DNA from: Candidatus Omnitrophota bacterium
Lineage (GTDB): Bacteria; Omnitrophota; Gorgyraeia; Gorgyraeales; Gorgyraeaceae
DNA: 64,000 nt
Reading direction: 5' to 3'
Assembly (NCBI GenBank): GCA_043814965.1
Contig: JBDRJN010000032.1
Coordinates: 20,126 to 84,125, forward strand
Position 1 is the stretch's first letter. Each line of letters starts with the position of its first letter. This document shows positions 3,761-34,158 of this stretch, one piece after another. The translations under genes and the position numbers were made by a program. The notes below the pieces were generated by a model that was not told where the DNA came from, made no database searches, and saw only the letters and a list, made by a program, of their open reading frames with translations.

Positions 3761-6753
<2,993 letters not shown>

Positions 6754-18300: not shown

Positions 18301-19840
18301 CTGACAAAAAGGCATGAGGAGTGTCATTGCCCATACTACCTACGGGCTCTTTGCCATCCTCTGCCATAGGCTTTAATATCAACTTAAGGTCTTCTCTGGA
18401 ATAACCAAATGCCTTGAGACTGCGGATTATGTCCTCGGATCTTTGTTTGTTAGTCCCGCTAGCCATAAGTTTATCAAGGTCTACCATGCTCTTGGTGTTC
18501 CATTCACCGTATGGACATTGTAAAGACACCCTCTTTTTTATTTCAGGATCATGTACTATAGAACCTAATTCAGTATCTATAAAAAATATCTTTCCTGGTT
18601 CCAGCCTCCCTGAAACCTTGATATCCGAAGGGTCTATGCCAAGAACCCCTACCTCTGATGCCATAACTACAAAATCATTTTTAGTCACTATATAGCGCGC
18701 AGGGCGCAGGCCATTTCTGTCCAAGACAGCTCCTATATTCTTTCCATCCGTAAATGCTATCGCAGCTGGCCCATCCCAGGGTTCTGCAAAACATGCATGA
18801 TATGTATAAAAATCCTTGAGTTCTTTTGTCATAAGGTTGTTATGCTCCCAGGCTTCAGGGATAAGCATCATCATAGAACTTTCAAGAGACCTGCCTGAAA
18901 GGACCAGAAGTTCAAAAAAATTATCTATTGCGGCAGAATCGCTTCCGCCTTCAACAATAACTGGTTTTATCTTTTCTATGTCTGTAGCGAATAAACCGCT
19001 TGCAAGCAACCGTTCTCTTGCGCTTACCCAATTGATATTGCCTCTTATAGTATTTATCTCTCCATTATGGGCTAAAAATCTAAAAGGCTGCGCCAGGTCC
19101 CAGGTAGGAAAAGTATTAGTGCTGTAACGTGAATGCACCAGGCATAAGGCGCTCTTTATATTTTTATCCTTGAGGTCCAGGAAAAAATTCTCAAGCTGGG
19201 TAGGCATAAGCAGCCCCTTATAAGAAAATGTACGGCTGGATATATTGGTAATATAGAAAGCTCTCTTTTCCTCTAAGCTGGAGTTACGAATAGCATTATC
19301 AACTTGTTTTCTTATTAGATACAGCCTTCTCTCAAAGCTTAATGCATCCTCTTTGGTCATGATCTTTTTATTGCTTCCTATAAATATCTGTTCAAATACC
19401 GGCTGAGCGTCTCTTGCAGTCTTGCCGATATCAGAATTGTCTATAGGTACTGTACGCCACCCCAATAAAACCTGGCCTTCTTCTTTTATGATATTCTCGA
19501 AAACCTCCTTACAGAATTTTCGCTCTTTATCTTTCTGTGGCAAAAATATTAGGCCAGTTCCATATGAACCCTCTAGCGGTAGATCAATCTTGGCTTCTTT
19601 CGCTGCCCTTATAAAAAACTCATGAGGTATTTGTATTAATATACCGGCGCCATCGCCTGTTTTTGGATCTGCCCCTACTGCCCCGCGATGAGACAACCGC
19701 CTTAATACCTCTATACCCTGCTTTACAATAGAATTCGATCTTTCTCCTTTAATATTGCAGACAAACCCCACCCCGCAGCTATCTTTTTCAAATTGCGGAT
19801 CATACAGTCCTTGTTTTTCTGAAAAATAAGGTTGCCTCAT
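15299..19840 (-). CDS. gltB: Glutamate synthase large subunit
   Basis: 1513 aa. N-terminal Cys amidotransferase (CGVGF), a central FMN domain, and a C-terminal GXXG repeat domain. Confidence 0.95.
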   Translation of the reverse strand: MRQPYFSEKQGLYDPQFEKDSCGVGFVCNIKGERSNSIVKQGIEVLRRLSHRGAVGADPKTGDGAGILIQIPHEFFIRAAKEAKIDLPLEGSYGTGLIFLPQKDKERKFCKEVFENIIKEEGQVLLGWRTVPIDNSDIGKTARDAQPVFEQIFIGSNKKIMTKEDALSFERRLYLIRKQVDNAIRNSSLEEKRAFYITNISSRTFSYKGLLMPTQLENFFLDLKDKNIKSALCLVHSRYSTNTFPTWDLAQPFRFLAHNGEINTIRGNINWVSARERLLASGLFATDIEKIKPVIVEGGSDSAAIDNFFELLVLSGRSLESSMMMLIPEAWEHNNLMTKELKDFYTYHACFAEPWDGPAAIAFTDGKNIGAVLDRNGLRPARYIVTKNDFVVMASEVGVLGIDPSDIKVSGRLEPGKIFFIDTELGSIVHDPEIKKRVSLQCPYGEWNTKSMVDLDKLMASGTNKQRSEDIIRSLKAFGYSREDLKLILKPMAEDGKEPVGSMGNDTPHAFLSEQPQMLYNYFKQLFAQVTNPAIDSIREKLVMSLESFIGPEKNILEETPEHSHKIRVRNPILTDGELEKIRDISINGFKTKTIYTFFDAKSGKEGFVKVLERICFEAEYAIEKGYSFIILSDRGSDKDNIALPALLATSAVHQHLVRQTIRSQVALIVESAEPREVHHFALLFGYGAGCVNPYLAYEAIEYLITEKELSLDIQKALKNYNKAIREGILKILSKMGISTLRSYRGAQIFEALGLNESIIDKYFTGTVSRIGGVGLEGIAEETIKRYDHAYSERGVDTPYLTSGGVYQWKKDGEFHLWNPKTIASLQDSTRNNDYNKYKEFARMINDQSNNPTTLRSLLKFKETSPVPIEEVEPVKSIMRRFATGAMSFGSISRPAHETIAIAMNRIGGKSNTGEGGEDPNRFITLPNGDSRRSAIKQVASGRFGVTINYLVNADEIQIKIAQGAKPGEGGQLPGHKVSEVIAQTRYTTPGVTLISPPPHHDIYSIEDLAQLIFDLKNANPKARISVKLVSEVGVGTVAAGVAKGHADMILISGGDGGTGASPRSSIRYAGLPWELGLSETHQTLVLNNLRSRVRIQTDGQIRTGRDVAIAAILGAEEYGFCTAVLVVSGCVMLRHCHLNNCSVGVATQDSILQKNFKGRPEYIVNYFNFVAQELRETMARLGVRTIDEMIGRVELLDVNKDIVPLKAKGIDYSRILYKPDLPEYIGRRYQPGQEIGLEASLDRELIRKCKDSLEKNEPVSILAEINNTNRAVGAMLSGEICRRCGDGVLLEDTVVCKFRGIAGQSFGAFLAKGVTFELEGMTNDYVGKGISGGKIIVYPDKRSQYESDENVIIGNTTFYGAISGEAYIRGMAGERFCIRNSGLYAVVEGVGDHGCEYMTGGRIIILGKTGRNFAAGMSGGIAYVYDEDGNFKERCNTDMVELEKVKDEDKDTVYHLLHNHFKYTKSDKAKKIINSMHEELKKFVKVIPIEYKRILEGIKIEESLDLTEEYDG

Positions 19841-20064
19841 ATCTTGAATTTCTCCGAATCTATACCCAATCTTCTAACTTTATTATAAAGGGTATTTCTA
19901 TGGATACCCAGCATTTTCGCTGCTATTATCTTGTTGCCAAAAGACCTCTTTAGCGCTTTTTCAATAAGCATCTTTTCCATGCCCCCTATTACAACCGAAT
20001 AGATATGGCCTTTATGGATCATTATGAAATCATCATCTATGTTATCAATATCTTTACTCATCAT
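19837..20064 (-). CDS. Small stand-alone Fis-type (NtrC C-terminal-like) HTH DNA-binding protein
   Basis: 75 aa. IEKALKRSFGNKIIAAKMLGIHRNTLYNKVRRLGI matches the Fis / NtrC HTH_8 signature. A 4-nt ATGA overlap with gltB indicates translational coupling. Confidence 0.65.
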   Translation of the reverse strand: MMSKDIDNIDDDFIMIHKGHIYSVVIGGMEKMLIEKALKRSFGNKIIAAKMLGIHRNTLYNKVRRLGIDSEKFKI

Positions 20065-20165: not shown

Positions 20166-21494
20166 TCAAAGGATCGATAGATATTTATCCAATTCGTACT
20201 GAGGTACCTGTATCCTGTAACTATCCCATTCCTTTTTCTTCAGCTCTATGAATCTCGGGAAAATATGTGCCCCAAGGGTCTTTTTAACTAATTCACTTCC
20301 TTCTGTAATATTAATAGCCTGGCCTAAGTTATCAGGTAAGGTCTCTATACCTTGCGCCTTTCTTTCATTGTCGCTTAGATGATATAGATTGCCTTCCATT
20401 GCACCAGGGCATTTATAGCCTTTCTCTATCCCCTCTAATCCTGCATGAAGCATTGCTGCAAATGTGAGATATGGGTTACATGCTGGGTCACATGCCCTGA
20501 ATTCACACCTTGTAGCCTTTTCCATACCAGGATGATATAAAGGGACTCTGACAAGGGCTGATCTATTTCTGCGAGACCACGCGACATATACAGGCGCTTC
20601 GTAACCAGGCACAAGTCTCTTGTAAGAATTTGTAGTTTGAGCAAATATAGAACAGATCTCTTTTGAATGTTTTAATAGGCCTGCTATGTATGAACGCGCT
20701 GTATCAGACAGGTTATCCTTTGTGCTTTTATCAAAAAATGCGTTCTTCTCACCTTTAAATAGTGACTGGTGAGTGTGCATACCTGAACCATTCTGTCCAA
20801 ATATAGGTTTAGGCATAAAAGTAGCGTACACCCCGAATTTGCTGGCGATCTCTTTTACTGCTATTCTATAGGTGATGACATTATCTGCCATCTTTAATGC
20901 GTCATCATATCTCATATCGACTTCATGTTGACTTGGCGCAACTTCATGATGAGAATACTCTATCTTGATGCCCATCTTCTCTAAAGCCAATACCGTCTCT
21001 CTTCTTAAGTCACTTGCTACATCCAAGGTCGTAAGGTCAAAATATCCACCTTTATCAAGTATCTCTGTGCCCTTATCATCCTTAAAATAGAAAAACTCCA
21101 GTTCCGGGCCTAGATAAAAATGATCGTATCCCATATCAGATGCTCTTTTTAGGGCCTTTTTCAAAACATACCTTGGGTCACCTTCATAAGGCTGTTTATC
21201 TGGTGTCAAAACATCACAGATCATTCTTGCGACAGCCTTTTCGCTCGGCCTCCATGGAAGCAGGCAAAAAGTGTCAGGATCAGGGAGAGCTATCATGTCG
21301 CTTTCTTCAATATCCTGGTATCCTGTGATAGATGAACCGTCGAATCCCATACCATTTTCCAAAGCGCCTTCCAGCTCAGAATCAGTTATAGAAAAACTCT
21401 TCACCTGGCCCAATAGATCCGTAAACCAAAGCCTGATGAATTTTACATCCTTTTCCTTAACAAGCTTTATTATATCCTTCTTTGTCATACCCAT
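20166..21494 (-). CDS. glnA: Glutamine synthetase type I. The probable start is MGMTKKDII.
   Basis: GS signatures: GFDGSSI, SHHEVAPSQHE, NGSGMHTHQS and NSYKRL, plus a candidate adenylylation Tyr (NLYHL). The track start at 21530 lies inside the leader hairpin. An AAAGGGG SD sequence precedes the ATG at ~21494. Confidence 0.9.
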   Translation of the reverse strand: MGMTKKDIIKLVKEKDVKFIRLWFTDLLGQVKSFSITDSELEGALENGMGFDGSSITGYQDIEESDMIALPDPDTFCLLPWRPSEKAVARMICDVLTPDKQPYEGDPRYVLKKALKRASDMGYDHFYLGPELEFFYFKDDKGTEILDKGGYFDLTTLDVASDLRRETVLALEKMGIKIEYSHHEVAPSQHEVDMRYDDALKMADNVITYRIAVKEIASKFGVYATFMPKPIFGQNGSGMHTHQSLFKGEKNAFFDKSTKDNLSDTARSYIAGLLKHSKEICSIFAQTTNSYKRLVPGYEAPVYVAWSRRNRSALVRVPLYHPGMEKATRCEFRACDPACNPYLTFAAMLHAGLEGIEKGYKCPGAMEGNLYHLSDNERKAQGIETLPDNLGQAINITEGSELVKKTLGAHIFPRFIELKKKEWDSYRIQVPQYELDKYLSIL

Positions 21495-21527: not shown

Positions 21528-21676
21528 CATTAAGTAGAAAAGACGTTCCTATAGCGCTTGTCCTAGCTATAAGAACGTCTTTGTTCTATCTGGGTGATTA
21601 ACACAAACTTTGTGCTTATCTACCTATACTGGTAGCCTTCATATATACAAGTAAAAAAAGAGTGCTTTTGGTAACT
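21528..21676 (-). promoter_or_regulatory. Conserved nitrogen-regulon leader module, copy E1. Upstream of glnA1.
   Basis: On the gene strand the module contains, in order: AGTTACCAA, then 12 nt, then TTTTTACTTGTATA. Next come the palindrome GCACAAAGTTTGTGT and the hairpin AGAAC-AAAGAC-GTTCT. A 9-bp stem follows (AAGACGTTC...GAACGTCTT, enclosing TATAGC...GCTATA) with UUUUCUACUU after it, ~35 nt before the ATG. Confidence 0.55.
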
Positions 21677-21760: not shown

Positions 21761-22102
21761 TTATCCTATTGCCTCACCGCCTCTTTCTCCTGTGCGGATC
21801 CTGATGCATTCATTGAGATCATATACAGCTATTTTCCCGTCGCCAATATTGCCAGTCCTAGCTCCTTTGATAACCGCACTTATAGTAGGCTCGACGAAAT
21901 CATCATTTACAAGTATCTCCAGCTTGATCTTGGGAATCAGGTTTACCTTATAGATCTTTCCTCTGTAAGATTCAGTATAACCTCTTTGCTGACCGCAGCC
22001 TTTTACTCTGCTTACTGTCATCTTAAATACCTCGGCCTTGAATAGTTCAGCTTTAACCGCATCCAGTTTTTCTGGCTGTATGATCGCTTCTATTTTTTTC
22101 AT
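21761..22102 (-). CDS. glnB: Nitrogen regulatory protein P-II
   Basis: 113 aa with a T-loop ([12 protein letters not shown]) and the GlnB signature. Confidence 0.9.
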
Positions 22103-22115
22103 TTACTGCCTCCTA

Positions 22116-23351
22116 TTATAAAGACTCCTCAGGATATGCCTCTATCTTGTGAATAGACAGATCCGCTCCTATTAATTCAGAGTGTTCATCAAGTCTTATA
22201 CCAAAAGTCTTCTTAAGTATAAAATAAACCAGGCTTCCGCCTATAAGCGCAAACACGATTGCAGCCAGTGACCCTATCAGCTGCGCTGATAAACTCACGC
22301 CTCCGAGCCCTCCGAGTATCTTCTTGCCGAAAATACCGCAAGCAACTCCACCCCAAGTTCCAGCAACTCCGTGAAGAGGCCAGACCCCCAATACATCATC
22401 TATTTTCAATTTCTCAGTCTCTGTCTGAAAAAGTACTACAAATATCACAGCAGCTACTGCTCCTGTAACTAGCGCGCCCATTGGATGCATCACATCCGAA
22501 CCAGAACAAATAGCTATCAGTCCTGCAAGCGCTCCATTATGTATGAACGTAACGTCGTTCTTAGACACGATCAAAGCTGCTATTATCCCTCCTACCATAG
22601 CCATAAGCGAATTGATAGCTACCAATCCGGAAATATTCTCTAATCTTCCTGCGCTCATCACGTTAAAGCCGAACCATCCTATACAAAGCAGCCAACTTCC
22701 AAGAGCCAGAAAAGGTATATTGCTGACTTTTATAGGCTGCGACTCGCCATTTTCATATCTCTTAAGGCGAGAACCCAATATTATGATAGCAGGCAGCGCC
22801 AACCATCCTCCCATAGAATGAACAACTACAGAGCCAGCATAGTCATGAAATGGTATACCCCCTGTAAAATTAGCCAGCCACGAACCAGCCTGGCCCAAAA
22901 GCAGATTTTTACCCCACACCAATGATTCGAAAAACGGATAGACCGACCCTACAAAGATCCCTCCTGCCAGAGCCTGGGTCCAAAACTTGGCCCTTTCAGC
23001 TATCCCTCCTGAAATAATAGCAGGGATGCACGCTGCAAAAGTCAAAAGAAAGAAAAAGTGCACTATATCAAAACCCTGGTTGGGGCCTAATAATTCAGAT
23101 GCTGGCTTCAAAAAACTTATCCCATAGGCGATCGGAAAGCCTATGATAAAATATATGACCGTGGAAAACGCCCAGTCAGTGATTATCTTCACCAATGCAT
23201 TCACCTGGTTCTTTTTCCTCACTGACCCTACTTCCAAAAAAGCAAAACCCGCGTGCATAGAGAAAACAAACATCGCTCCCAAAAGTAAAAATAAGATATT
23301 ACTGCTGGCAAGCAACTTTTCAAGGCTTATCGACAACATCTGCATATTCAT
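22116..23351 (-). CDS. amt: Ammonium transporter
   Basis: 411 aa Amt/MEP family protein with multiple TM helices. It lies immediately upstream of glnB. Confidence 0.9.
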   Translation of the reverse strand: MNMQMLSISLEKLLASSNILFLLLGAMFVFSMHAGFAFLEVGSVRKKNQVNALVKIITDWAFSTVIYFIIGFPIAYGISFLKPASELLGPNQGFDIVHFFFLLTFAACIPAIISGGIAERAKFWTQALAGGIFVGSVYPFFESLVWGKNLLLGQAGSWLANFTGGIPFHDYAGSVVVHSMGGWLALPAIIILGSRLKRYENGESQPIKVSNIPFLALGSWLLCIGWFGFNVMSAGRLENISGLVAINSLMAMVGGIIAALIVSKNDVTFIHNGALAGLIAICSGSDVMHPMGALVTGAVAAVIFVVLFQTETEKLKIDDVLGVWPLHGVAGTWGGVACGIFGKKILGGLGGVSLSAQLIGSLAAIVFALIGGSLVYFILKKTFGIRLDEHSELIGADLSIHKIEAYPEESL

Positions 23352-23357
23352 GCCTCC

Positions 23358-23497
23358 TTTTTACTAAAACAAAAGAGGCGTCCCTATAATTTTTTACAAC
23401 AATAAGAACGCCTTCGTTCTATTAGCCTTTACACAAACATTGTGCTTAGATACCTAATTACTTATATAAGTAAAAATAGAGGTAGCTTGGTAACTTA
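23358..23497 (-). promoter_or_regulatory. Conserved nitrogen-regulon leader module, copy E2. Upstream of amt1-glnB1.
   Basis: Blocks on the gene strand: AGTTACCAA, then 12 nt, then TTTTTACTTATATA. Next come the palindrome AGCACAATGTTTGTGT and the hairpin AGAACG-AAGG-CGTTCT. A stem AGGCGT...ACGCCT is followed by CUUUUGUUUU ahead of the start. Confidence 0.55.
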
Positions 23498-23591: not shown

Positions 23592-23803
23592 GATAAAAGG
23601 AATTCTGTAAGCGAATTTGAAAATTTAACCTTTTATGAAGCGTTTTGGCGGTTTTTAAAAGGCTCGAAACTATCCGAAGCCAGCACGCCAGATTTTGTGC
23701 TGGCAAGTTTTTCGAGCCCCGACAAAATGCGTAATAAAAGGTGTCCCAAAGTAAATTCTATAAGTGGGAAATTTTCACCTGAGCGAACGGAATTCCTTTT
23801 ATC
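23592..23803. repeat. 212-bp element bounded by a perfect 14-bp inverted repeat (GATAAAAGGAATTC / GAATTCCTTTTATC). It encloses a nested GC-rich hairpin.
   Basis: The inverted repeat and the inner hairpin (GGCTCGAAA..GCCAGCAC..GTGCTGGC..TTTCGAGCC, 23661-23718) were read directly from the sequence. On the minus strand the outer stem is followed by UUUUUU. No ORF lies inside; the + ORF 23697..24038 is spurious. Confidence 0.5.
23648..23718 (-). terminator. Terminator-like nested hairpin downstream of glnK2
   Basis: A 9-bp outer stem and an 8-bp inner stem, followed by UUUUAAAAACC on the minus strand. Confidence 0.45.
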
Positions 23804-23830: not shown

Positions 23831-24172
23831 TTACCCTATTGCCTTTCCTCCAGTTTCCCCTGTACGGATCCTTATACATTCAGGAAGGTCCAGCACAAAT
23901 ATCTTCCCATCTCCTATATTGCCCGTCTTGGCGCCTTTTATGATAGCATCAATAGTAGGCTTAACAAAATCCTCATTTACCGCTATCTCCAACCTTACCT
24001 TTTTAAGAAGATTTACATCATGTATAACTCCTCTATAGGTTTCTGTAAAGCCTTTTTGCTGTCCGCAGCCAAGCACATTAGAGACTGTCATCTTGTAAAC
24101 CTGCGCATCGTAAAGCGCTTTTTTAACATCAGGTAATTTATGCGGTTGTACCATTGCTATTATTAACTTCAT
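23831..24172 (-). CDS. glnK: P-II protein, GlnK-type, amt-linked
   Basis: 113 aa paralogous to the glnB at 21761. It lies immediately downstream of the second amt. Confidence 0.9.
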
Positions 24173-24256
24173 ATTACACCTCCGAAATTTTGCGAAGCAA
24201 AATTAAGCCCCGAGCAGCAACAGTCAATAACTATGCCGCGAGGGACAAGTTATGCT

Positions 24257-25513
24257 TTATTGGGTAGTAAAGATCTCGAATCCAGCGTATGATTCCATGC
24301 CATGCTCTCCTATATCTAGGCCTTTCAGTTCCTCTTCTTTTGAAACTCTTAGCCCTACTGTCTTATCTATTAATTTAAAAATAATGCTCATTGATGCGAC
24401 AATAAAAAGCGCTACTGATAGAACCCCCAGAGCCTGTATCCCAAGCTGAGTAAAGCCTCCTCCATAAAAAAGTCCGTTATTCGCAAGGCCAAGCGCTTTC
24501 TGGCCGAACAATCCTATAGAAAGAGTGCCCCATATACCATTTATGCCGTGTACAGGAAAAGCTCCCACGGGGTCATCTATGTGAAGTTTGTCCAATATAA
24601 CCACTGCCAATACTACTATAAACCCACCTATCATACCTATAATAATAGCTGCCCATGGCTCTACATATGCGCAAGGAGCAGTTATCGCTACGAGCCCTGC
24701 CAATGCTCCGTTCATTGCCATAGAGAGATCTGGTTTTCCAAATATCTTCCACACAGCAGCCATGGCTGTAAGACATCCTAAAGCTGCGGCGAGATTAGTA
24801 TTAATAGCTATTCTTGATATTAAATCTCCGTTTCCCACCCCAAGCGTAGAACCCGGGTTAAACCCAAACCACCCAAACCACAGTATAAATACCCCTAAAG
24901 AAGCCAGAGGTATTGAATGTCCTGCTATAGCATTTGCGGAACCATCAGCATTATATTTTCCTGTCCTTGGCTTTAACATTATAGTGCCTACCAGGGCTGC
25001 TACACCTCCTACTAGATGTACTACAGTAGAACCTGCAAAATCAGAAAACCCCAGCTTAGCCAGCCATCCTCCGCCCCATATCCAATGGCCTACGACCGGA
25101 TATATAAAAGCGGATATCAGAAAGGAATATACCAAGTATGCCTGAAACTTCATGCGTTCAGCCATGCCTCCCGCAACAATCGTTGCTGCTGCGCCGCAAA
25201 ATGCTGCCTGGAATAGCCAAAAAGCATATAAAGGTACGCCTGCGCCTGATTCAGCGCCATTCAAAAACCAGCCTTTTAATCCAATAAAACTATTTCCTGC
25301 GCCAAACATTATTGCATAGCCAAATACGAAAAATCCTAAAGACGCCATACAAAAATCCAGGAAATTCTTGGTCAATATGTTACATGTGTTTTTTGCCCTT
25401 ATGAATCCAGCTTCTACCATACCAAATCCAGCTTGCATAAAAAACACTAAAAATGCTGCCAACAATACCCATACAGTATCAAGCCCTGCCCTTAGATCAA
25501 CTAAAGTTTCCAT
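24257..25513 (-). CDS. amt: Ammonium transporter, second copy
   Basis: 418 aa Amt family protein. Confidence 0.9.
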   Translation of the reverse strand: METLVDLRAGLDTVWVLLAAFLVFFMQAGFGMVEAGFIRAKNTCNILTKNFLDFCMASLGFFVFGYAIMFGAGNSFIGLKGWFLNGAESGAGVPLYAFWLFQAAFCGAAATIVAGGMAERMKFQAYLVYSFLISAFIYPVVGHWIWGGGWLAKLGFSDFAGSTVVHLVGGVAALVGTIMLKPRTGKYNADGSANAIAGHSIPLASLGVFILWFGWFGFNPGSTLGVGNGDLISRIAINTNLAAALGCLTAMAAVWKIFGKPDLSMAMNGALAGLVAITAPCAYVEPWAAIIIGMIGGFIVVLAVVILDKLHIDDPVGAFPVHGINGIWGTLSIGLFGQKALGLANNGLFYGGGFTQLGIQALGVLSVALFIVASMSIIFKLIDKTVGLRVSKEEELKGLDIGEHGMESYAGFEIFTTQ

Positions 25514-25524
25514 AATCCCCTCCT

Positions 25525-26289
25525 TTATAAGCTAAAAGCTACTGTCACTCCTCCATAAAATTCGTTATCGTAATTGCCGTCATCTGCGTCCTTAAGGTCT
25601 CCGAAAGGCATGTCATAATTTATAACAGGCGATATTGAACAGATATCTGTTAATTTGATAGTAAGCCCTGCTCCAAGATTAACATGCCCTCCTTCTCCTT
25701 TAATAAACAACTCCTTGTTGTACCCAACTCCTCCTGATAAGTCCAAGGTTACTGGAGAATCTCCTACAGGCTCAGAATGGCTAAGACTAAGATAAACATA
25801 ATCTCCGCTTCCTCCTCCTGAGTCTTCTTCTCCAAAATCATGATAAAACGTTATAGAAGGAGAAAGTAATGTATCCAAGCTTGTTCCTATAAACCATTCC
25901 CTGCTGGCTCCGTCTGCTGCCGGAAAATCATAATACGTAAAACCTCCTGAGAGCGACACTGGGGTTCCAGGGATAGGATAACTATAACTTATAGAATAAT
26001 CCACCTCTTCGGAAGATGTCAAAGAATCATCCGAATCTATATCAGCGCTTCCCCAAATGCTTGTCTCAAAATCATAACCACTAACATAGACTCCTGGCTG
26101 AACCACTGGATCGCCATCAAGTTTTATACCTCTCCATATGTATTTCGAGAAAAAGCCAATATCCGAAAAAACGCTGATATCATGCCCTTCTAACAAAGGC
26201 TTTGTGTCTTCTGCAAAAACTCTCCTGGCCGTGAAACTGACCGAAAAACAAATCATTAATATCAATAATCCTTTTATAAGCTTCATCAT
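25525..26289 (-). CDS. Small outer-membrane beta-barrel, porin-like protein. It heads the amt2-glnK2 operon.
   Basis: The likely true start is MMKLIKGLLILMICFSVSFTA (signal peptide), with a GGGGAAGGGA SD just upstream. The track start at 26361 would run through the terminator hairpin. The protein has alternating beta-strand patterns, acidic loops and a C-terminal ...VTVAFSL. Confidence 0.5.
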   Translation of the reverse strand: MMKLIKGLLILMICFSVSFTARRVFAEDTKPLLEGHDISVFSDIGFFSKYIWRGIKLDGDPVVQPGVYVSGYDFETSIWGSADIDSDDSLTSSEEVDYSISYSYPIPGTPVSLSGGFTYYDFPAADGASREWFIGTSLDTLLSPSITFYHDFGEEDSGGGSGDYVYLSLSHSEPVGDSPVTLDLSGGVGYNKELFIKGEGGHVNLGAGLTIKLTDICSISPVINYDMPFGDLKDADDGNYDNEFYGGVTVAFSL

Positions 26290-26304: not shown

Positions 26305-26415
26305 TGTAAAAGTTAAAAAATAAAACAGGCGTTCTTTATAAGAACGCCTTCGTATCAACACAACTATGTGTCTTTATCTGCTTATACAAGTAAGAATTTG
26401 ATTACTTTGGTAACT
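26305..26415 (-). promoter_or_regulatory. Conserved nitrogen-regulon leader module, copy E3. Upstream of porin-amt2-glnK2.
   Basis: Blocks on the gene strand: AGTTACCAA, then 12 nt, then TTCTTACTTGTATA. Next come the palindrome ACACATAGTTGTGT and ACGAAGGCGTTCTTAT, which forms the 5' arm of a strong terminator (GGCGTTCTT-ATA-AAGAACGCC plus UGUUUUAUUUUUU). The start follows ~35 nt later. Confidence 0.55.
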
Positions 26416-26472: not shown

Positions 26473-26988
26473 TTAATCAAACTTCCTATGCCATTTTTTT
26501 ATTATGTTCTTCTTATGCTTTAGGATCATGACATGGGATATATTCATCTCTTTTGCAGCTTCCCGAACTGTATATCCCTTAAGGAGATACGAGAGTACGG
26601 TCTTTTCGCTATCCGTCAAGCCTATGCCCTTCAATTCATCAACCGTAAGCCTGCGCTCCATGCTATCCGGAAAGCTTTCCTTTTTGTCTTCAAGGATATC
26701 GCCTAACGTCAGGTCTGTTGAAGGAATGATTTCATTGAGACTTGTTAATAATGCCTTTGGCCTTCCTTTTCTTAAAAAATTTTGAATATGGAACTCGCAC
26801 CCTTTGATAATATAACTCTCATTCTTATCGATCGGGGCCCCATACTTATAATTCTCTAGTAAATACAGGCACATCTCCTGATAAAGGTCATCTTCGCTAT
26901 AGAATCCTTTTAAGATATGCCTTCTAGCAATAAGCTTAAGCGTAGGAGTTATTTTTTCAAGTAGTATCCTAAAATCCATAAGTATCAC
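26473..26988 (-). CDS. ECF-type sigma-70 family factor
   Basis: 171 aa with a region-2-like segment (DDLYQEMCLYLLENY) and a region-4 HTH (LTDSEKTVLSYLLKGYTVREAAKEMNIS). An AGGTGA SD precedes the internal ATG (MDFRILL) at ~26979. Confidence 0.6.
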   Translation of the reverse strand: MILMDFRILLEKITPTLKLIARRHILKGFYSEDDLYQEMCLYLLENYKYGAPIDKNESYIIKGCEFHIQNFLRKGRPKALLTSLNEIIPSTDLTLGDILEDKKESFPDSMERRLTVDELKGIGLTDSEKTVLSYLLKGYTVREAAKEMNISHVMILKHKKNIIKKWHRKFD

Positions 26989-26995
26989 CTATTGA

Positions 26996-27045
26996 CTAAA
27001 AATAAAAAAGTCCTTTCCAGTAGAACTCTCTACCAAAAAGGACTT
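26996..27045 (-). terminator. Intrinsic terminator immediately upstream of the ECF sigma gene
   Basis: 9-bp stem (AAGTCCTTT...AAAGGACTT) with an inner hairpin, followed on the minus strand by UUUUUAUUUUUAG. Confidence 0.5.
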
Positions 27046-27054
27046 CATTGTCCT

Positions 27055-27087
27055 ATAAATATAAAAAGCGTTCCTTTCCTGGAACGC
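27055..27087 (-). terminator. Second tandem terminator in the spacer between the 266-aa gene and the ECF sigma gene
   Basis: GCGTTCC-AGGAAA-GGAACGC hairpin followed by UUUUUAUAUUUAU on the minus strand. Confidence 0.5.
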
Positions 27088-27250
27088 CTCATCGCCTTTA
27101 TATTGAGCACTATCTTTGTACTCAATATAAGTTTACCATCTTATGGGTGTACTGTCAATAGCCTTTTTTCTACTAGGGTTTTTCGCTGAGAAATCCAAGC
27201 GTCTTTTTGAGGCCCATCTCACAAAAAAAGCGAAGATCGTTTATAGCTTA

Positions 27251-28796: not shown

Positions 28797-30131
28797 CTAT
28801 AGGATCGGCAAATATTTATCTATCTCATATTTAGAGACCTGGGCCTTGTATTCATCCCATTCTAGATATTTATTCCTTATAAAATATCCAAAGACCTTGT
28901 CCCCCAAAGCCTCTTTTAAAAGAGAGCTCTTTTCAGCAAGCTTTATTGCTTCATATAGGTCTTCCGGCAGAGAATTGATGGTTGCTTTTTCCCTATCCTT
29001 TTCCGTCATCTTATAGATGTTGTCTTCTGCAGGCTCTACGAGTTTATATTTCTTCTTTATACCTTCCAGGCCTGCCCTAAGCATCACTGAAAATGCCAGG
29101 TAGGGATTGCAGGCTGGATCAGGAGACCTGACCTCGATCCTTGTCGCGTGTTCTTTGCCAGGTTTATACATAGGGACCCTTACAAGAGCGGATCTATTCA
29201 TCTGTGCCCAACAGATGTAAACAGGCGCCTCATAACCCGGTATAAGCCTCTTATATGAATTGACCCACTGGTTTGTAACAACCGTGATCTCCGGGACATG
29301 TTTCAATATACCTGCTATAAAATATTTTGCTGTGTCTGACAGATGCCTTTTATCGGTCTTACTGAAAAATGCGTTCTTCTTGCCTTTAAAAAGAGACTGG
29401 TGCACATGCATGCCGCTTCCATTTATGCCATGTATTGGTTTTGGCATAAAAGTAGCATACACACCGTTCTGCCTGGCAACCTCTTTTACTACCATGCGGT
29501 ATGTCATGACATTGTCAGCCATCATAAGCGCGTCATTATATCTAAGGTCTATCTCATGCTGGGAACTAGCTACTTCATGATGAGAATATTCTACCTGGAC
29601 CCCCATCTTTTCCAGATTTATGACTGTCTGTCTTCTGAAATCCTGCGCAACATCCAAAGGCGTCAAATCGAAATATCCTCCTCTATCGAGTATTATTGTA
29701 TTATTAGGGTTATTAAAATAAAAATACTCCAGTTCCGGGCCTACATAATAATTGGTAAAGCCCATGTCTTTTGCAAGCTTGATGTTCCTCTTTAATACAA
29801 ATCTTGGATCTCCCTCAAAAGGTTTTCCGTTAGGCTGTAATATATCGCAGAACATCCTTGCAGAAAGCCCTTCTTTCTTCTTTCTCCATGGAATAAGCTG
29901 GAACGTAGAGATATCAGGAAAAGCTACCATATCACTCTCTTCGATGCGGGCAAATCCTTCAATGGATGAACCGTCAAAACCCATACCTTCTGACAATGCC
30001 TTATCAAGCTCATTTCTTGTGATAGTGACTCCTTTTTGAAAACCCAATACATCAGTAAACCAGAGCTTGATAAATTTAATGTTATGTTTTTTTACTAACC
30101 TTAAAACGTCTTTTTTGGTTTTAATTAACAT
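28797..30131 (-). CDS. glnA: Glutamine synthetase type I, second copy
   Basis: 444 aa with the same GS signature blocks as the copy at 20166 (GFDGSSI, SHHEVASSQHE, NGSGMHVHQS, NSYKRL). Its start overlaps the queF stop. Confidence 0.9.
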   Translation of the reverse strand: MLIKTKKDVLRLVKKHNIKFIKLWFTDVLGFQKGVTITRNELDKALSEGMGFDGSSIEGFARIEESDMVAFPDISTFQLIPWRKKKEGLSARMFCDILQPNGKPFEGDPRFVLKRNIKLAKDMGFTNYYVGPELEYFYFNNPNNTIILDRGGYFDLTPLDVAQDFRRQTVINLEKMGVQVEYSHHEVASSQHEIDLRYNDALMMADNVMTYRMVVKEVARQNGVYATFMPKPIHGINGSGMHVHQSLFKGKKNAFFSKTDKRHLSDTAKYFIAGILKHVPEITVVTNQWVNSYKRLIPGYEAPVYICWAQMNRSALVRVPMYKPGKEHATRIEVRSPDPACNPYLAFSVMLRAGLEGIKKKYKLVEPAEDNIYKMTEKDREKATINSLPEDLYEAIKLAEKSSLLKEALGDKVFGYFIRNKYLEWDEYKAQVSKYEIDKYLPIL

Positions 30132-30529
30132 ACTTTGCTCCCTTTGAATTCAGAACTTATAGTTGTTGTTATCCCCCCGCGAGTGTTAAATACTCCTTTG
30201 ATATATGCCCATCTTGGTTTGCAGGCCTTTACAAAATCATCTAAAATCTTATTTACCGCATGTTCGTGAAAAATACCTATATCCCTATAACTTACCAGGT
30301 ACATCTTTAAGCTCTTTAGCTCTACACATAGCTCATCAGGCCTATACTGGAGCATCAGGTTAGCAAAGTCAGGTAAGCCCGTCTTTGGGCATACACATGT
30401 AAATTCTGGATGTTCTAGATCTATCAAATAATCCTTATCAGAGTACTCATTGCGCCAGGTATCTATCTTTGGCATCTTGAGGCAGCGTACGTCTTTTTGT
30501 AGATCTCTGTAGGAATTTTTACTTGGCAT
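30125..30529 (-). CDS. queF: NADPH-dependent 7-cyano-7-deazaguanine (preQ0) reductase, type I (YkvM-like)
   Basis: 134 aa with the QueF motifs EFTCVCPKTGLPDF (catalytic Cys), ELKSLKMYL and the C-terminal NTRGG. Confidence 0.85.
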   Translation of the reverse strand: MPSKNSYRDLQKDVRCLKMPKIDTWRNEYSDKDYLIDLEHPEFTCVCPKTGLPDFANLMLQYRPDELCVELKSLKMYLVSYRDIGIFHEHAVNKILDDFVKACKPRWAYIKGVFNTRGGITTTISSEFKGSKVC

Positions 30530-30539
30530 AATATTTTTA

Positions 30540-31265
30540 TTACTTCATCTCATGCGTCATTACTATGGCTTCAGCGACATCCTTCATAGGCTTACGCCTA
30601 TCCATGCTGAACTTTTGTATCTTTCTAAAGGCATCTTCTTCTGTGAGACCTTCTTCTTTCATCAAGATACCTTTTGCTTTTTCTACTACTTTTCTTGTCT
30701 CGAGTTCTTCCTGTATAACACGCGTCTTTACCATAAGCTCTGTATTTTCTATAGCGATAGCTGCTTGATTTGCAACGCTTGTGAGGACGCTTATCTCTGT
30801 TTTTGAAAATTTATGCGGCTTTGAAGTGTAACAGTTTAAAGCTCCTATAACCTTATTTTTTACAGCTAAAGGCACGCACAAAAGTGAGGCAAGGCCTTCT
30901 TTTTGGGCAATATTTTTGTATTTGTATTCGGGATCCTTTAAAATATCCTCGACTACCAAAGGCTTATTAGCTGCGACTACTTTCCAGACCAAGCCCTCGC
31001 CTTTTTTTAGAGGGTCCTTACCTATATATTCTTCACTAATGCTTTGGGTTGCCCTTATAGAAAGATGTTCTTTTTTTTCATCCAAGAGCATAAGCGTACA
31101 GATCCTTGAATTCATGACTTCTGCTGTGACTGTTACGATAAGTTTGAGTATATCTTCTAGATAAAGATCGCTCGATATGGCTCTAGAGATCTTGGAAAGC
31201 GCTTCTATGGTATCAGCTGCTTTTGTATTCGTATTGGATCTTACTGCCTTATTTTTCTTTTTCAT
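30540..31265 (-). CDS. GAF-ANTAR domain RNA-binding antitermination regulator
   Basis: 241 aa. The N-terminal GAF domain is followed by a C-terminal ANTAR domain (ELETRKVVEKAKGILMKEEGLTEEDAFRKIQKFSMDRRKPMKDVAEAIV). It has a 4-nt overlap with lpxI. Confidence 0.8.
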   Translation of the reverse strand: MKKKNKAVRSNTNTKAADTIEALSKISRAISSDLYLEDILKLIVTVTAEVMNSRICTLMLLDEKKEHLSIRATQSISEEYIGKDPLKKGEGLVWKVVAANKPLVVEDILKDPEYKYKNIAQKEGLASLLCVPLAVKNKVIGALNCYTSKPHKFSKTEISVLTSVANQAAIAIENTELMVKTRVIQEELETRKVVEKAKGILMKEEGLTEEDAFRKIQKFSMDRRKPMKDVAEAIVMTHEMK

Positions 31266-32080: not shown

Positions 32081-32864
32081 CTCTTGTTGACTTTTTTATA
32101 AAATCTGTAAGATAATCTACTTCCTTCACTCCTTTTATCTCTTCTCTTACCTTATCCAGCCCGTTTTTAAATGAAAGCTTGCTTCTAAATAGTATCCTAA
32201 ACGCCTTTTTAAGTGCGGTTTGAGATTCTTTTGAGATCCCTGCCCTTGATAGGCCAATACTATTTAGCCCGTATATCCTCACGGGATGTCCGTCACAAGT
32301 TGAAAAAGGCGGGACATCCTGAACTACCTTTGAACATCCTCCTACGATAGAAAGCCTTCCTATTGTGACAAACTGGTGTATCGCTGTAAGCCCTCCTATT
32401 ACCACCCTATCCTCCAATGTGACATGCCCTGCAAGAGTCCCTGAGTTGGCAATGATACAATTTGACCCAACTTTACAGTCATGGGCCACATGAGAATATG
32501 CCATAAAGAGGTTTCCATCCCCTATCTGAGTGACGCTCCCCTCATCTGTACCAGGATTAAAAGTAGCGTATTCTCTGATCGTATTGTTTTTTCCTATCCT
32601 TAAGAAGCTTTTTACACCTTTATATTTAAGGTCTTGGGGGATCGAGCCAATACATGCTCCTGCAAATACATGAGTACCTTCTCCAATAGTAGTATAACCA
32701 TCTATTACTACATGAGGCCCGATCTTGACATTTTTTTCTATCTCTACGTTGGGCCCTATAATAGCATAAGGGCCGACCTCAATCTGGTCAGCCAATCTTG
32801 CTTTAGCATCGATAACTGCTGCGGAATGAATATTCATCTTTTTATTAAGCATCACCCAATGCAA
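32058..32864 (-). CDS. lpxA: Acyl-ACP--UDP-GlcNAc O-acyltransferase
   Basis: Hexapeptide-repeat LbH protein with an LpxA-type N-terminus (IHSAAVIDAKARLADQIEVGPYAIIGPNVEI). The true start is probably the internal Met near 32837. Confidence 0.9.
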   Translation of the reverse strand: MHWVMLNKKMNIHSAAVIDAKARLADQIEVGPYAIIGPNVEIEKNVKIGPHVVIDGYTTIGEGTHVFAGACIGSIPQDLKYKGVKSFLRIGKNNTIREYATFNPGTDEGSVTQIGDGNLFMAYSHVAHDCKVGSNCIIANSGTLAGHVTLEDRVVIGGLTAIHQFVTIGRLSIVGGCSKVVQDVPPFSTCDGHPVRIYGLNSIGLSRAGISKESQTALKKAFRILFRSKLSFKNGLDKVREEIKGVKEVDYLTDFIKKSTRGVCRGGK

Positions 32865-34158
32865 ACATAAGGTCTGCTTCGCTTACAACCTGTCCTTCAA
32901 CAAGCGCCTTTGTGTGCACAAGGCCTGTTTTCGAACGAAGCTTTACTACGTCTACTTCCAATCTAAGCTGGTCTCCTGGGACAACTGTCTTTCTAAACTT
33001 TGCCTTGTCCAAGCTCATAAAATATGCGATCTTTCCTACGTTCTCCTGCTTATTAAGCATCAAGACCCCTGCTACTTGAGCCATAGCCTCTATTATCAAC
33101 ACTCCTGGCATAACAGGCCTTCCAGGGAAATGTCCTGTAAAAAAGTGTTCGTTCACTGTAACATTCTTTATACCGACTGCTCTCTTATTTGGTTCTAATT
33201 CTATGATCTTATCGACCAAGAGGAACGGATACCGATGAGGAAGTATCTTCTGTATTTCAGTCGAGTCCAGTTCTATACCATCTGTAGCAACATATACCCC
33301 CTTCAAGCCGCCTACCTGAGATTTCTCTTTCTGCTTATTGATCTTATCGACCAGTTTTATGTTCAAAGGGTGCCCGCTTCTGACAGCTATAATATGGCCC
33401 TTTATATTGTAACCCAACAAATACAGATCCCCCAATAGATCCAGGATCTTATGCCTTGCAAACTCATCATCAAACCTAAGTACATTATCTATTATCTTTT
33501 CTTGCCCGACTACGACAGTATTTTCATAATTAGCGCCCTTCCCAAGGCCTTGCTGTTTAAGGTCCTTTACTTCTCTTTCAAGACAGAACGTCCGGGATGT
33601 AGATATTTCTTTTTCAAACGTACCTTCACTAAGACTGCAAGATATATATTGCGCCTTTAATAAAGGATGTTCGTAATTCAACGTGTAAGATATCTTAAAG
33701 TCTGTATCCGGGACGACCATTATCATCGCCCCATCTTGTTCTTCCCATATAGGAGAGCGGACTTGATAGACTTTTTTCGGGATCCCCTGGTCTTTAACCC
33801 CGGATTTTTTCAATACATCGATAAACCCTTTAGAGCTTCCATCAAGGCCTGGTAATTCAGGGCCATTTATTTCTACCAATATATTGTCGATCCCCATCCC
33901 CCATAAGGCTGCCATAAGATGTTCTATGGTATGGATCTCGACATTGCCTGTTCCTATAGAAGTCCTTCTAGGGCTTTTGTCCTGGTCTAGTATGTTCGCG
34001 ATAGTTGCATTAACCATAGGAGAATCCTTTATATCTGTTCTGATAAAATTTATACCTGTATTTGGAGAAGCTGGTTTAAACTTTAAGTCAACCTTTGCTC
34101 CCGTATGCAATCCTATCCCGCTGAGTCCTATTGCTGTTTTTATCGTTCGCTGTTCCAT
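32845..34158 (-). CDS. lpxC: Bifunctional UDP-3-O-acyl-GlcNAc deacetylase / 3-hydroxyacyl-ACP dehydratase (LpxC-FabZ fusion)
   Basis: 437 aa. Residues ~1-290 are LpxC (HTIEHLMAAL, zinc ligands). Residues ~295-437 are FabZ hot-dog (PHRYPFLLVD...HFPGRPVMPGVL). Confidence 0.85.
   Translation of the reverse strand: MEQRTIKTAIGLSGIGLHTGAKVDLKFKPASPNTGINFIRTDIKDSPMVNATIANILDQDKSPRRTSIGTGNVEIHTIEHLMAALWGMGIDNILVEINGPELPGLDGSSKGFIDVLKKSGVKDQGIPKKVYQVRSPIWEEQDGAMIMVVPDTDFKISYTLNYEHPLLKAQYISCSLSEGTFEKEISTSRTFCLEREVKDLKQQGLGKGANYENTVVVGQEKIIDNVLRFDDEFARHKILDLLGDLYLLGYNIKGHIIAVRSGHPLNIKLVDKINKQKEKSQVGGLKGVYVATDGIELDSTEIQKILPHRYPFLLVDKIIELEPNKRAVGIKNVTVNEHFFTGHFPGRPVMPGVLIIEAMAQVAGVLMLNKQENVGKIAYFMSLDKAKFRKTVVPGDQLRLEVDVVKLRSKTGLVHTKALVEGQVVSEADLMFALGDA

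Follow-up and report, generated by a model that had tools for sequence, protein, structure and literature searches.

Putative ANTAR-type attenuators in the leaders of nitrogen-assimilation genes of an Omnitrophota bacterium

The DNA considered in this study, referred to throughout as the window, is a stretch of 64,000 nucleotides (nt) from contig JBDRJN010000032.1 of a Candidatus Omnitrophota bacterium. Three of its intergenic regions, here called E1, E2, and E3, are the leaders, respectively, of a glutamine synthetase gene (glnA1), of an operon of amt and PII genes, and of an operon encoding a porin-like protein followed by amt and PII. In each leader one RNA segment may pair in either of two ways, as the 5' arm of an intrinsic terminator or as the 3' arm of a weak hairpin with a six-nucleotide loop, and the same window encodes a protein that joins a GAF domain to an ANTAR domain. 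Judged from sequence, fold, and conservation, the three leaders are very probably ANTAR-type, protein-dependent transcription attenuators.

A first-pass annotation of this DNA had described terminator stems with U tracts in the three leaders and had proposed attenuation by mutually exclusive stems. The stems are real. They belong to the minus strand, however, and the annotation lacked both the hairpin that stands upstream of them and the ANTAR gene. Its proposal is now supported by these two elements, by the recurrence of the arrangement in related loci, and by the weakness of the antiterminator.

Alternative folds of the three leaders

Each leader contains, in order, a promoter-like module, a hairpin with a CAC/GUG core (P1), the block [A/G]G[A/G]CGUUCUUAU, and the downstream complement of that block with a U tract. 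The block, as RGRCGTTCTTAT, is present in exactly three copies on the minus strand of the window. It forms the 5' arm of the terminator and is able to pair instead with an upstream AGAAC or AUAC, giving the weak hexaloop hairpin P2. P1 has the form xCAC-A..G..-GUGx and lies 0-13 nt 5' of P2. In all three leaders the terminator's 5' arm begins at or just before the G in the fourth position of the P2 loop (G4). Coordinates are collected in Table 1.

The terminators were predicted by RNAfold to have energies of -21.8 (E1), -18.0 (E2), and -13.3 kcal/mol (E3), and the folds of the whole leaders have z-scores relative to shuffled sequences of -6.5, -4.1, and -5.4. A terminator scan picks out E3 independently. 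The arms are AAGACGUUCUUAUAGC and GCUAUAGGAACGUCUU, then UUCUACUU, in E1, where the 5' arm includes both the 3' arm of P2 and the last five nucleotides of its loop (AAGAC); AGGCGUUCUUAU and AUAGGGACGCCU, then CUUUUGUUUU, in E2; and AGGCGUUCUU-AUA-AAGAACGCCU (26349-26327), then GUUUUAUUUUUU, in E3. The U tracts had been placed 35-70 nt before the start codons, but measured from the end of the tract the distances are 38 nt in E1, 15-21 nt in E2, and 26 nt in E3. The start of glnA1, taken earlier to be the ATG at 21530, is instead the one at 21494, where a Shine-Dalgarno sequence is present.

The alternative hairpins proposed for E1 and E2 also proved genuine: folded without the 3' arm of the terminator, both leaders adopt P1 together with AGAAC-loop-GUUCU. 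Since GUUCU is common to P2 and the terminator, the two folds are mutually exclusive. P2 alone has a predicted energy of -3.2 kcal/mol in E1, -3.2 to -5.2 in E2, and +1.7 in E3, marginal values as compared to terminators of -13 to -22 kcal/mol. Termination should thus be the default, and a factor that holds P2 would be needed to escape it, which is the logic of ANTAR antitermination rather than of a self-contained riboswitch.

The ANTAR target described in the literature consists of two tandem hairpins of at least 3 bp, separated by a variable linker and bearing hexaloops with A in position 1 (A1) and G4, the second of which overlaps a terminator (PMC3369931, PMC8934654). The overlap with a terminator is found in all three window leaders. 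Both hairpins reach 3 bp in E1 and E2 (P1 4-5 bp, P2 5 bp), and in E3 only P1 does. The likeness of a loop to those bound by ANTAR proteins, noted in the first-pass annotation, holds for the P2 loop of E1 (A1, G4), but those of E2 and E3 carry G in position 1. The annotation had also called E3 a textbook terminator. A terminator it is, but not only that, for among the three leaders it is E3 whose P1-P2 region agrees best with the covariance model described below (47 bits), and the AUAC arm of its P2 is found as well in the orthologous leaders of related loci L009 and L012.

The glnA1 leader has an additional hairpin between promoter and P1, CUACC-AGUAUA-GGUAG (21620-21635, minus strand), kept in L009 as UCUACC-AGUGUG-GGUAGA with A1 and G4 in the loop. 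It may be a third ANTAR-type loop.

The proposed course of events is as follows. Transcription would start at the bipartite promoter GTTACC-16 nt-TACTTGTA, and the nascent RNA would form P1 first, a hairpin built on CAC/GUG whose loop reads A-N-N-G-N-N(-N). Next to be transcribed would be the P2 region, (A)GAAC-[A/G]NNG[G/A]C-GUUC(U). Without the protein, G[G/A]CGUUCUU..., beginning at position 4 of the P2 loop, would pair with its downstream complement to give the strong terminator, and RNA polymerase would stop 15-40 nt before the start codon, leaving the gene off by default. An active GAF-ANTAR dimer would bind the loop of P1 and then that of P2, and G4 would swing out to stack on an aromatic residue that is conserved in the protein. 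With P2 stabilised and GUUC sequestered, the terminator could not nucleate, and polymerase would read through into glnA, amt-PII, or porin-amt-PII.

Table 1. Coordinates in the window of the leader elements and of the genes proposed to be connected with them.
Feature	Position	Strand	Basis
E1 P1, AGCAC-AAAGUUU-GUGUU, 7-nt loop with A1 and G4	21600..21616	-	folding, covariance model, covariation
E1 P2, AGAAC-AAAGAC-GUUCU, hexaloop with A1 and G4	21572..21587	-	folding, covariance model
E1 intrinsic terminator and U tract	21532..21581	-	folding; 16-bp stem 21581-21540
E2 P1, GCAC-AAUGUUU-GUGU	23431..23445	-	folding, covariance model
E2 P2, AGAAC-GAAGGC-GUUCU, loop with G1 and G4	23405..23420	-	folding, covariance model
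E2 terminator and U tract	23366..23413	-	folding; stem 23413-23376
E3 P1, GACAC-AUAGUU-GUGUU, hexaloop with A1 and G4	26357..26372	-	folding, covariance model
E3 P2, (G)AUAC-GAAGGC-GUUC(U), unstable alone	26341..26356	-	covariance model
E3 terminator and U tract	26315..26349	-	folding, terminator scan
E1 class B promoter-like module, GTTACC, 16 nt, TACTTGTATA	21644..21675	-	motif search, fixed spacing
E2 class B promoter-like module	23463..23494	-	motif search
E3 class B promoter-like module	26383..26414	-	motif search
GAF-ANTAR one-component protein, proposed antiterminator	30540..31265	-	Pfam
168-residue ECF-like sigma or LuxR-HTH protein, proposed reader of class B	26473..26979	-	NCBIfam, homologue names
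Leader of the sigma-like gene, divergent tandem attenuator	26990..27158	-	terminator and promoter scans
glnA1 (glutamine synthetase), proposed to be controlled by E1	20166..21494	-	Pfam
amt and PII operon, proposed to be controlled by E2	21761..23351	-	Pfam
Porin-like protein (Gcw_chp), amt, and PII operon, proposed to be controlled by E3	23831..26289	-	Pfam

Recurrence and covariation in related loci

The comparison drew on 80 loci (1.07 Mb) that surround homologues of the ANTAR gene in Omnitrophota, in Aerophobetes, and in mis-binned metagenome-assembled genomes (MAGs). They were searched with a covariance model, R2, whose seed consisted of seven natural hexaloop leaders, linkers included, E3 among them but neither E1 nor E2. 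R2 superseded a model (R1) made from engineered seeds without linkers, which passed over P1 in E1 and E2, and a MAFFT alignment of raw P1-P2 sequences was discarded, the 6-nt and 7-nt loops of P1 having been misaligned. E2 scores 32 bits (E = 3e-6) and E1 31 bits (E = 6e-6), and over the 64 kb of the window R2 finds no match below E = 0.3 besides E1, E2, and E3.

The search of the 1.07 Mb gave 68 matches at E <= 1, distributed over 42 of the 80 loci plus the window, and 67 of them lie on the strand of the genes. In 66 of the 68 there is a hairpin that runs from G4 of the P2 loop and ends at a U-rich tract. The full arrangement of promoter-like module, P1, P2, and terminator is seen again in front of amt, PII, glnA, and the ANTAR gene. 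More broadly, the genes that follow matches are amt, PII, glnA, gltB, a small GltS-type enzyme, two kinds of glutamate dehydrogenase (GDH), carbamoyl-phosphate synthetase, a porin-like protein, a sigma-like gene, and the ANTAR gene itself, the last in about 25 cases and often behind two or three attenuators in tandem. The matches before the ANTAR gene suggest that it is autoregulated in many lineages.

The loops are conserved at specific positions, bearing in mind that the seeds of the model carried A1 and G4, so that counts of these residues lean towards the signature. A1 is found in 42 and G4 in all of the 44 intact P1 loops. The P2 loop is 6 nt long in 60 of the 68 matches; G4 is present in all 60 and A1 in 50, the other ten, including E2 and E3, having G1. 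Position 5 of the P2 loop is G or A and position 6 is C.

The stems are kept by compensatory change, the loss of which would have told against attenuation. Over the 68 matches, 94.3% of P1/P2 cells are paired and double changes are seen in six of the nine pairs; there are 55 compensatory cells, as compared to 10 +/- 5 in shuffled alignments, and none of 500 shuffles reached 55. Controls in which the register was slid are 29-60% paired. The ten basal pairs of the terminator (both arms anchored) are paired in 88.7% of cells, and pair 2, formed by position 5 of the P2 loop with its 3' partner, is GC in 44 cases, AU in 12, GU in 5, and never unpaired. Wobble pairs occur often in both orientations (GU 16 and 21 times and UG 11 and 14 times, for example). 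The glnA1 orthologue in L009 is 97% identical at the level of protein, and in its leader P2 has GGAU/GUCC in place of AGAAC/GUUCU, the arms of the terminator changing in step. The slid controls, the use of G-U pairs, and the strand bias together argue for a genuine signal, and one exerted at the level of RNA. Chance is excluded because E1 and E2, not being in the seed, nonetheless score near 1e-5, and because of the covariation.

Some related genomes have, after or between the ANTAR attenuators and upstream of glnA or PII, another conserved RNA-like element, GCCCAG-NAA-GGGCACACC-AAACAAUCCUAUAUGUUUGGGUGUU (L054 16318-16346, L066 5248-5276, L039 about 4935-4980). It has no Rfam match, and a search of the window for GGGCACACC...UGUUUGGUGU found none.

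A number of considerations weigh against an ANTAR-type assignment. Because the loci were chosen by their ANTAR genes, the sampling itself accounts for part of the association between motif and gene, and the alignments used to measure covariation, having been adjusted to the model or to predicted folds, lean towards pairing. P1 loops are 6 nt in only 22 of the 44 intact examples and 7 nt in the other 22, including E1 and E2, and the linkers between P1 and P2 vary in length between 0 and about 24 nt, whereas EutV is tolerant of only small changes in this length. In the P2 of E3, Watson-Crick pairing is limited to AC/GU, two pairs where the published minimum is three, and the G1 of the P2 loops in E2 and E3 could pair with C6 to leave a tetraloop. 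Finally, Rfam applied at gathering score to the window and eight related loci gave tRNAs and noise but no cis-regulatory family, and applied to the leaders at E <= 5 gave only noise, with no riboswitch, T-box, or curated ANTAR family. Membership among ANTAR targets rests in consequence on criteria from the literature.

The attenuators might instead be switched by something other than the GAF-ANTAR protein, such as a different RNA-binding protein, a small molecule bound by a riboswitch, or translation of a leader peptide. The G1 of E2 and E3, the 7-nt P1 loops that depart from the canonical hexaloop, and the extra RNA-like element beside some related leaders would be at home in such a scheme, but no Rfam riboswitch or T-box match appears even at E <= 5, the conserved part (about 40 nt, two small hairpins) offers no aptamer-sized structure, and the leaders have no open reading frame. 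Furthermore, the A1/G4 signature of the loops is specific to ANTAR (PMC3369931), the motif stands immediately 5' of the ANTAR gene in about 25 loci, and the consensus of the P2 loop is that of the mapped site of the ANTAR protein GnfR. I regard a switch of another kind as improbable.

More improbable still is that CACA..UGUG and AGAAC-N6-GTTCT are DNA operators, perhaps for a LuxR-type helix-turn-helix (HTH) protein, and the hairpins ordinary terminators or roadblocks. Both elements are indeed palindromes in DNA, close to a promoter-like module, and a gene for a helix-turn-helix protein adjoins E3. What is conserved, however, is pairing rather than sequence, and the frequent G-U and U-G pairs would be mismatches in a DNA palindrome. 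An operator would also not account for the 67:1 preference of the matches for the sense strand, for loops that are asymmetric and conserved (A1, G4), or for terminators that start within the P2 loop in 66 of 68 cases, and a terminator between promoter and gene calls for antitermination in any event. It is scarcely credible that the hairpins, intergenic and 3' of another gene on the same strand though each one is, merely terminate the upstream PII or sigma-like genes and are complementary to upstream sequences by accident, given that those genes have terminator-like hairpins of their own (at about 21705, after PII, GUCUA-CUUU-UAGAC; at about 23725-23665, a long one), that the elements lie downstream of a conserved promoter module, that in 42 loci the module precedes genes whose upstream neighbours differ, and that the E-values of the covariance model and the covariation rule out accident.

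The GAF-ANTAR protein and a possible sigma-like partner

The protein that would act on the ANTAR-type leaders is encoded 4-9 kb from the three of them. It matches Pfam families GAF_2 (9e-25) and ANTAR (PF03861, 1.9e-22, 79 bits where the cutoff is 27). A Candidatus Omnitrophota MAG encodes an identical (100%) protein, and over Omnitrophota and Aerophobetes the level of conservation is 65-86%. The ANTAR domain can be aligned to those of Rv1626, EutV, NasR, and AmiR. In the structure of EutV with RNA, the loop is contacted by a Tyr that stacks on G4, a Met that serves as a plug, and a Lys (PMC8934654). Alignment to EutV (6wsh) shows Met and Lys kept and Phe, as in Rv1626, in place of Tyr. The protein is proposed to bind the P1/P2 RNAs.

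The GAF domain is closest to those of PtsP (EI-Ntr) and NifA/Nlh1, and both PtsP and NifA are nitrogen-sensing proteins. By this likeness, the domain may sense nitrogen status as 2-oxoglutarate or glutamine. The GAF-ANTAR gene of the window has no attenuator leader, which sets it apart from its autoregulated counterparts in many related genomes. It overlaps the stop codon of lpxI and has queF and a second glutamine synthetase gene, glnA2, directly 3' of it (28797-31265, minus strand).

The promoter-like modules before the three leaders are of one type. The pattern GTTACCAA-N12-TACTTRTATA has three exact matches in the window, where none is expected. This type, class B, with consensus (G)GTTACCAAAA...TTTTTACTTGTA, precedes the leaders of amt, PII, glnA1, and the porin-like gene, and a second type, the sigma70-like class A (cTTGACA-17-TATAAT), precedes GDH, many ANTAR genes, and the 168-residue gene discussed below. 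GTTACC and TACTT, when they co-occur under a loose definition, are separated by exactly 16 nt in 26 of 36 instances, all 26 on the strand of the gene, and 23 instances of class B are found beyond the three of the window (for example, L009 14839, L039 4847, L076 9867). Class B fits neither the sigma-70 nor the sigma-54 consensus: a scan with the sigma-70 consensus did not flag the modules and gave as many matches as expected from shuffled sequence, and inspection of the modules by eye for sites of TnrA/GlnR (TGTNA-N7-TNACA), NtcA (GTA-N8-TAC), and sigma-54 (TGGCAC-N5-TTGC) gave no convincing match.

A candidate for the reader of class B promoters is the 168-residue protein encoded just upstream of E3, which resembles sigma factors of the extracytoplasmic function (ECF) type. 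It matches TIGR02937 over its full length with E = 4.5e-9, though its 36.2 bits fall below the cutoff of 42.9. In Pfam, GerE alone passes, Sigma70_r2 and Sigma70_r4 appearing at E = 0.04-0.17, and many homologues are named as sigma-70 family by the Prokaryotic Genome Annotation Pipeline, others as LuxR-type. Comparison of the sequence with PDB gave nothing below E = 0.04; the AlphaFold2 model has a pLDDT (predicted local distance difference test) of 63, and its top Foldseek matches are sigma factors, all with E >= 0.05. With so poor a model and such weak matches to structures, the assignment to sigma factors is inferential. In 11 of the 14 loci that have this gene, no more than about 100 nt separate its stop codon from the start of a class B promoter. 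The probable role of GTTACC-16-TACTTGTA is that of a promoter, with the ECF-like sigma factor encoded beside it as its reader.

The sigma-like gene has a leader of its own that may be subject to the same kind of control. A sigma70-type promoter (27158-27130) is followed by a P1, UUGAGUAC-AAAGAUA-GUGCUCAA (27125-27103), a terminator T1 (27090-27065), a hairpin P2b, AGGAC-AAUGAA-GUCCU (27054-27039), and a terminator T2 (27046-27007). The score of this leader with R2 is weak (E = 2.2). The sigma70-type promoter, P1, and one or two P2-like hexaloops (AAUGAA) are kept in L009, L020, L024, L032, and L040, and each such hexaloop overlaps a terminator.

These features suggest a cascade, to which I would give about an even chance, in which active ANTAR protein permits expression of the sigma-like gene, whose product in turn activates class B promoters, ANTAR protein being required again to pass each leader. 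Less likely than not, but a serious possibility, is a nitrogen circuit common to Omnitrophota and Aerophobetes, with the three leaders as its output layer, in which a one-component GAF-ANTAR sensor of a metabolite such as 2-oxoglutarate or glutamine gates by antitermination its own gene (in many lineages), the gene of the lineage-specific sigma-like factor, and all of the GTTACC-16-TACTTGTA operons that this factor transcribes. If so, the circuit would constitute a coherent feed-forward AND gate of an RNA-binding protein and a sigma factor.

All of the genes from 13.8 to 35 kb of the window lie on the minus strand. Their order by Pfam, 5' to 3', is lpxD, lpxC-fabZ, lpxA, lpxI, GAF-ANTAR; queF, glnA2, DUF3108, DUF748, and the helix-turn-helix (sigma-like) protein of 168-171 residues; E3, the porin-like gene, amt, PII; E2, amt, PII; E1, glnA1; and lastly a Fis-like protein of 75 residues, gltB, and gltD. 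The lpx cluster includes a fusion of LpxC and FabZ as a single protein of 437 residues (32845-34158, minus strand). The 75-residue protein, of the Fis/NtrC-type HTH_8 family, is encoded between glnA1 and gltB (19837-20064, minus strand) and overlaps the start of gltB. After the PII gene at 23831-24172 there is a long, nearly perfect hairpin, GGCUCGAAAAACUUGCCAGCAC...GUGCUGGCUUCGGAUAGUUUCGAGCC (23665-23725, minus strand), probably the terminator of the E3 operon.

Relation to known ANTAR systems

The mechanism itself is already known. Ramesh et al. (2012) predicted it in many bacteria, finding the ANTAR motif before PII, amt, and genes of glutamine and glutamate synthase (PMC3369931), and it has been demonstrated in Geobacter. 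What is new here is the phylum, a regulator that is a one-component GAF-ANTAR protein, and, probably, a link to a sigma-like factor that is specific to the lineage and has a promoter type of its own. The GAF-ANTAR architecture is abundant in databases, but the literature searched describes no characterised member (PMC7496416, PMC12591593), the characterised one-component ANTAR proteins being described as NIT- and PAS/LOV-ANTAR only (PMC7496416).

The leaders provide a testable model of nitrogen control for an uncultivated phylum with little known regulatory biology, together with a large collection of natural targets for a protein of the GAF-ANTAR type. With P1 loops of 6 or 7 nt, linkers of 0-24 nt, and P2 stems down to 2 bp, the alignment of about 70 leaders broadens the range of sequences known among ANTAR targets and could help to refine the models used to search for them. 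The coupling to a sigma factor, if true, would be an unusual wiring of control at initiation to control after it.

Among the closest parallels are the eut leaders bound by EutV in Enterococcus faecalis and the regulons of Ramesh et al., which share with the leaders described here tandem hairpins with A1 and G4, overlap of P2 with the terminator, termination by default, the stabilisation of P2 by protein that is proposed here, multiple leaders per genome, and attenuators in tandem; the predicted regulons share also the targets PII, amt, and glutamine and glutamate synthase. In contrast, their regulator is a REC-ANTAR response regulator, not a one-component GAF-ANTAR protein, and the leaders of this study, from the phylum Omnitrophota, differ in having 7-nt loops in half of their P1 hairpins, variable linkers, and additional conserved positions in the P2 loop ([A/G]NNG[G/A]C), explained by the double role of positions 4-6 as the first pairs of the terminator.

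Also close are two proteins of one-component or pseudo-receiver design, NasR (NIT-ANTAR), acting on the nasF leader in Klebsiella, and AmiR, acting on amiE in Pseudomonas. Their ANTAR domains are homologous to that found here, and in both cases a ligand sets the level of read-through at the leader terminator of a pathway for a nitrogen source. They differ in the sensor (NIT, or the partner AmiC), in the control of a single operon, and in responding to nitrate or amides.

Of the systems studied by experiment, the closest is the GnfK/GnfR system of Geobacter sulfurreducens (nifH, glnK, amtB). There GnfR, a REC-ANTAR protein, is phosphorylated by a kinase, whereas here the sensor is a GAF domain; the Geobacter promoters depend on sigma-54 and GnfM, whereas those here are sigma70-like or of the lineage-specific GTTACC-16-TACTTGTA type; and the ANTAR protein here appears to stand upstream of the sigma-like factor rather than downstream. 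In both, nonetheless, an ANTAR protein relieves, or here would relieve, terminators in the leaders of nitrogen genes, as part of a cascade with a second transcriptional regulator (PMC2995071). The two share even the hexaloop that overlaps the terminator: the mapped GnfR site, CAGGCAANGGCGCC (PMC2995071), may be read as GGC-AANGGC-GCC, the loop of which, AANGGC, is the P2 loop consensus of the leaders described here.

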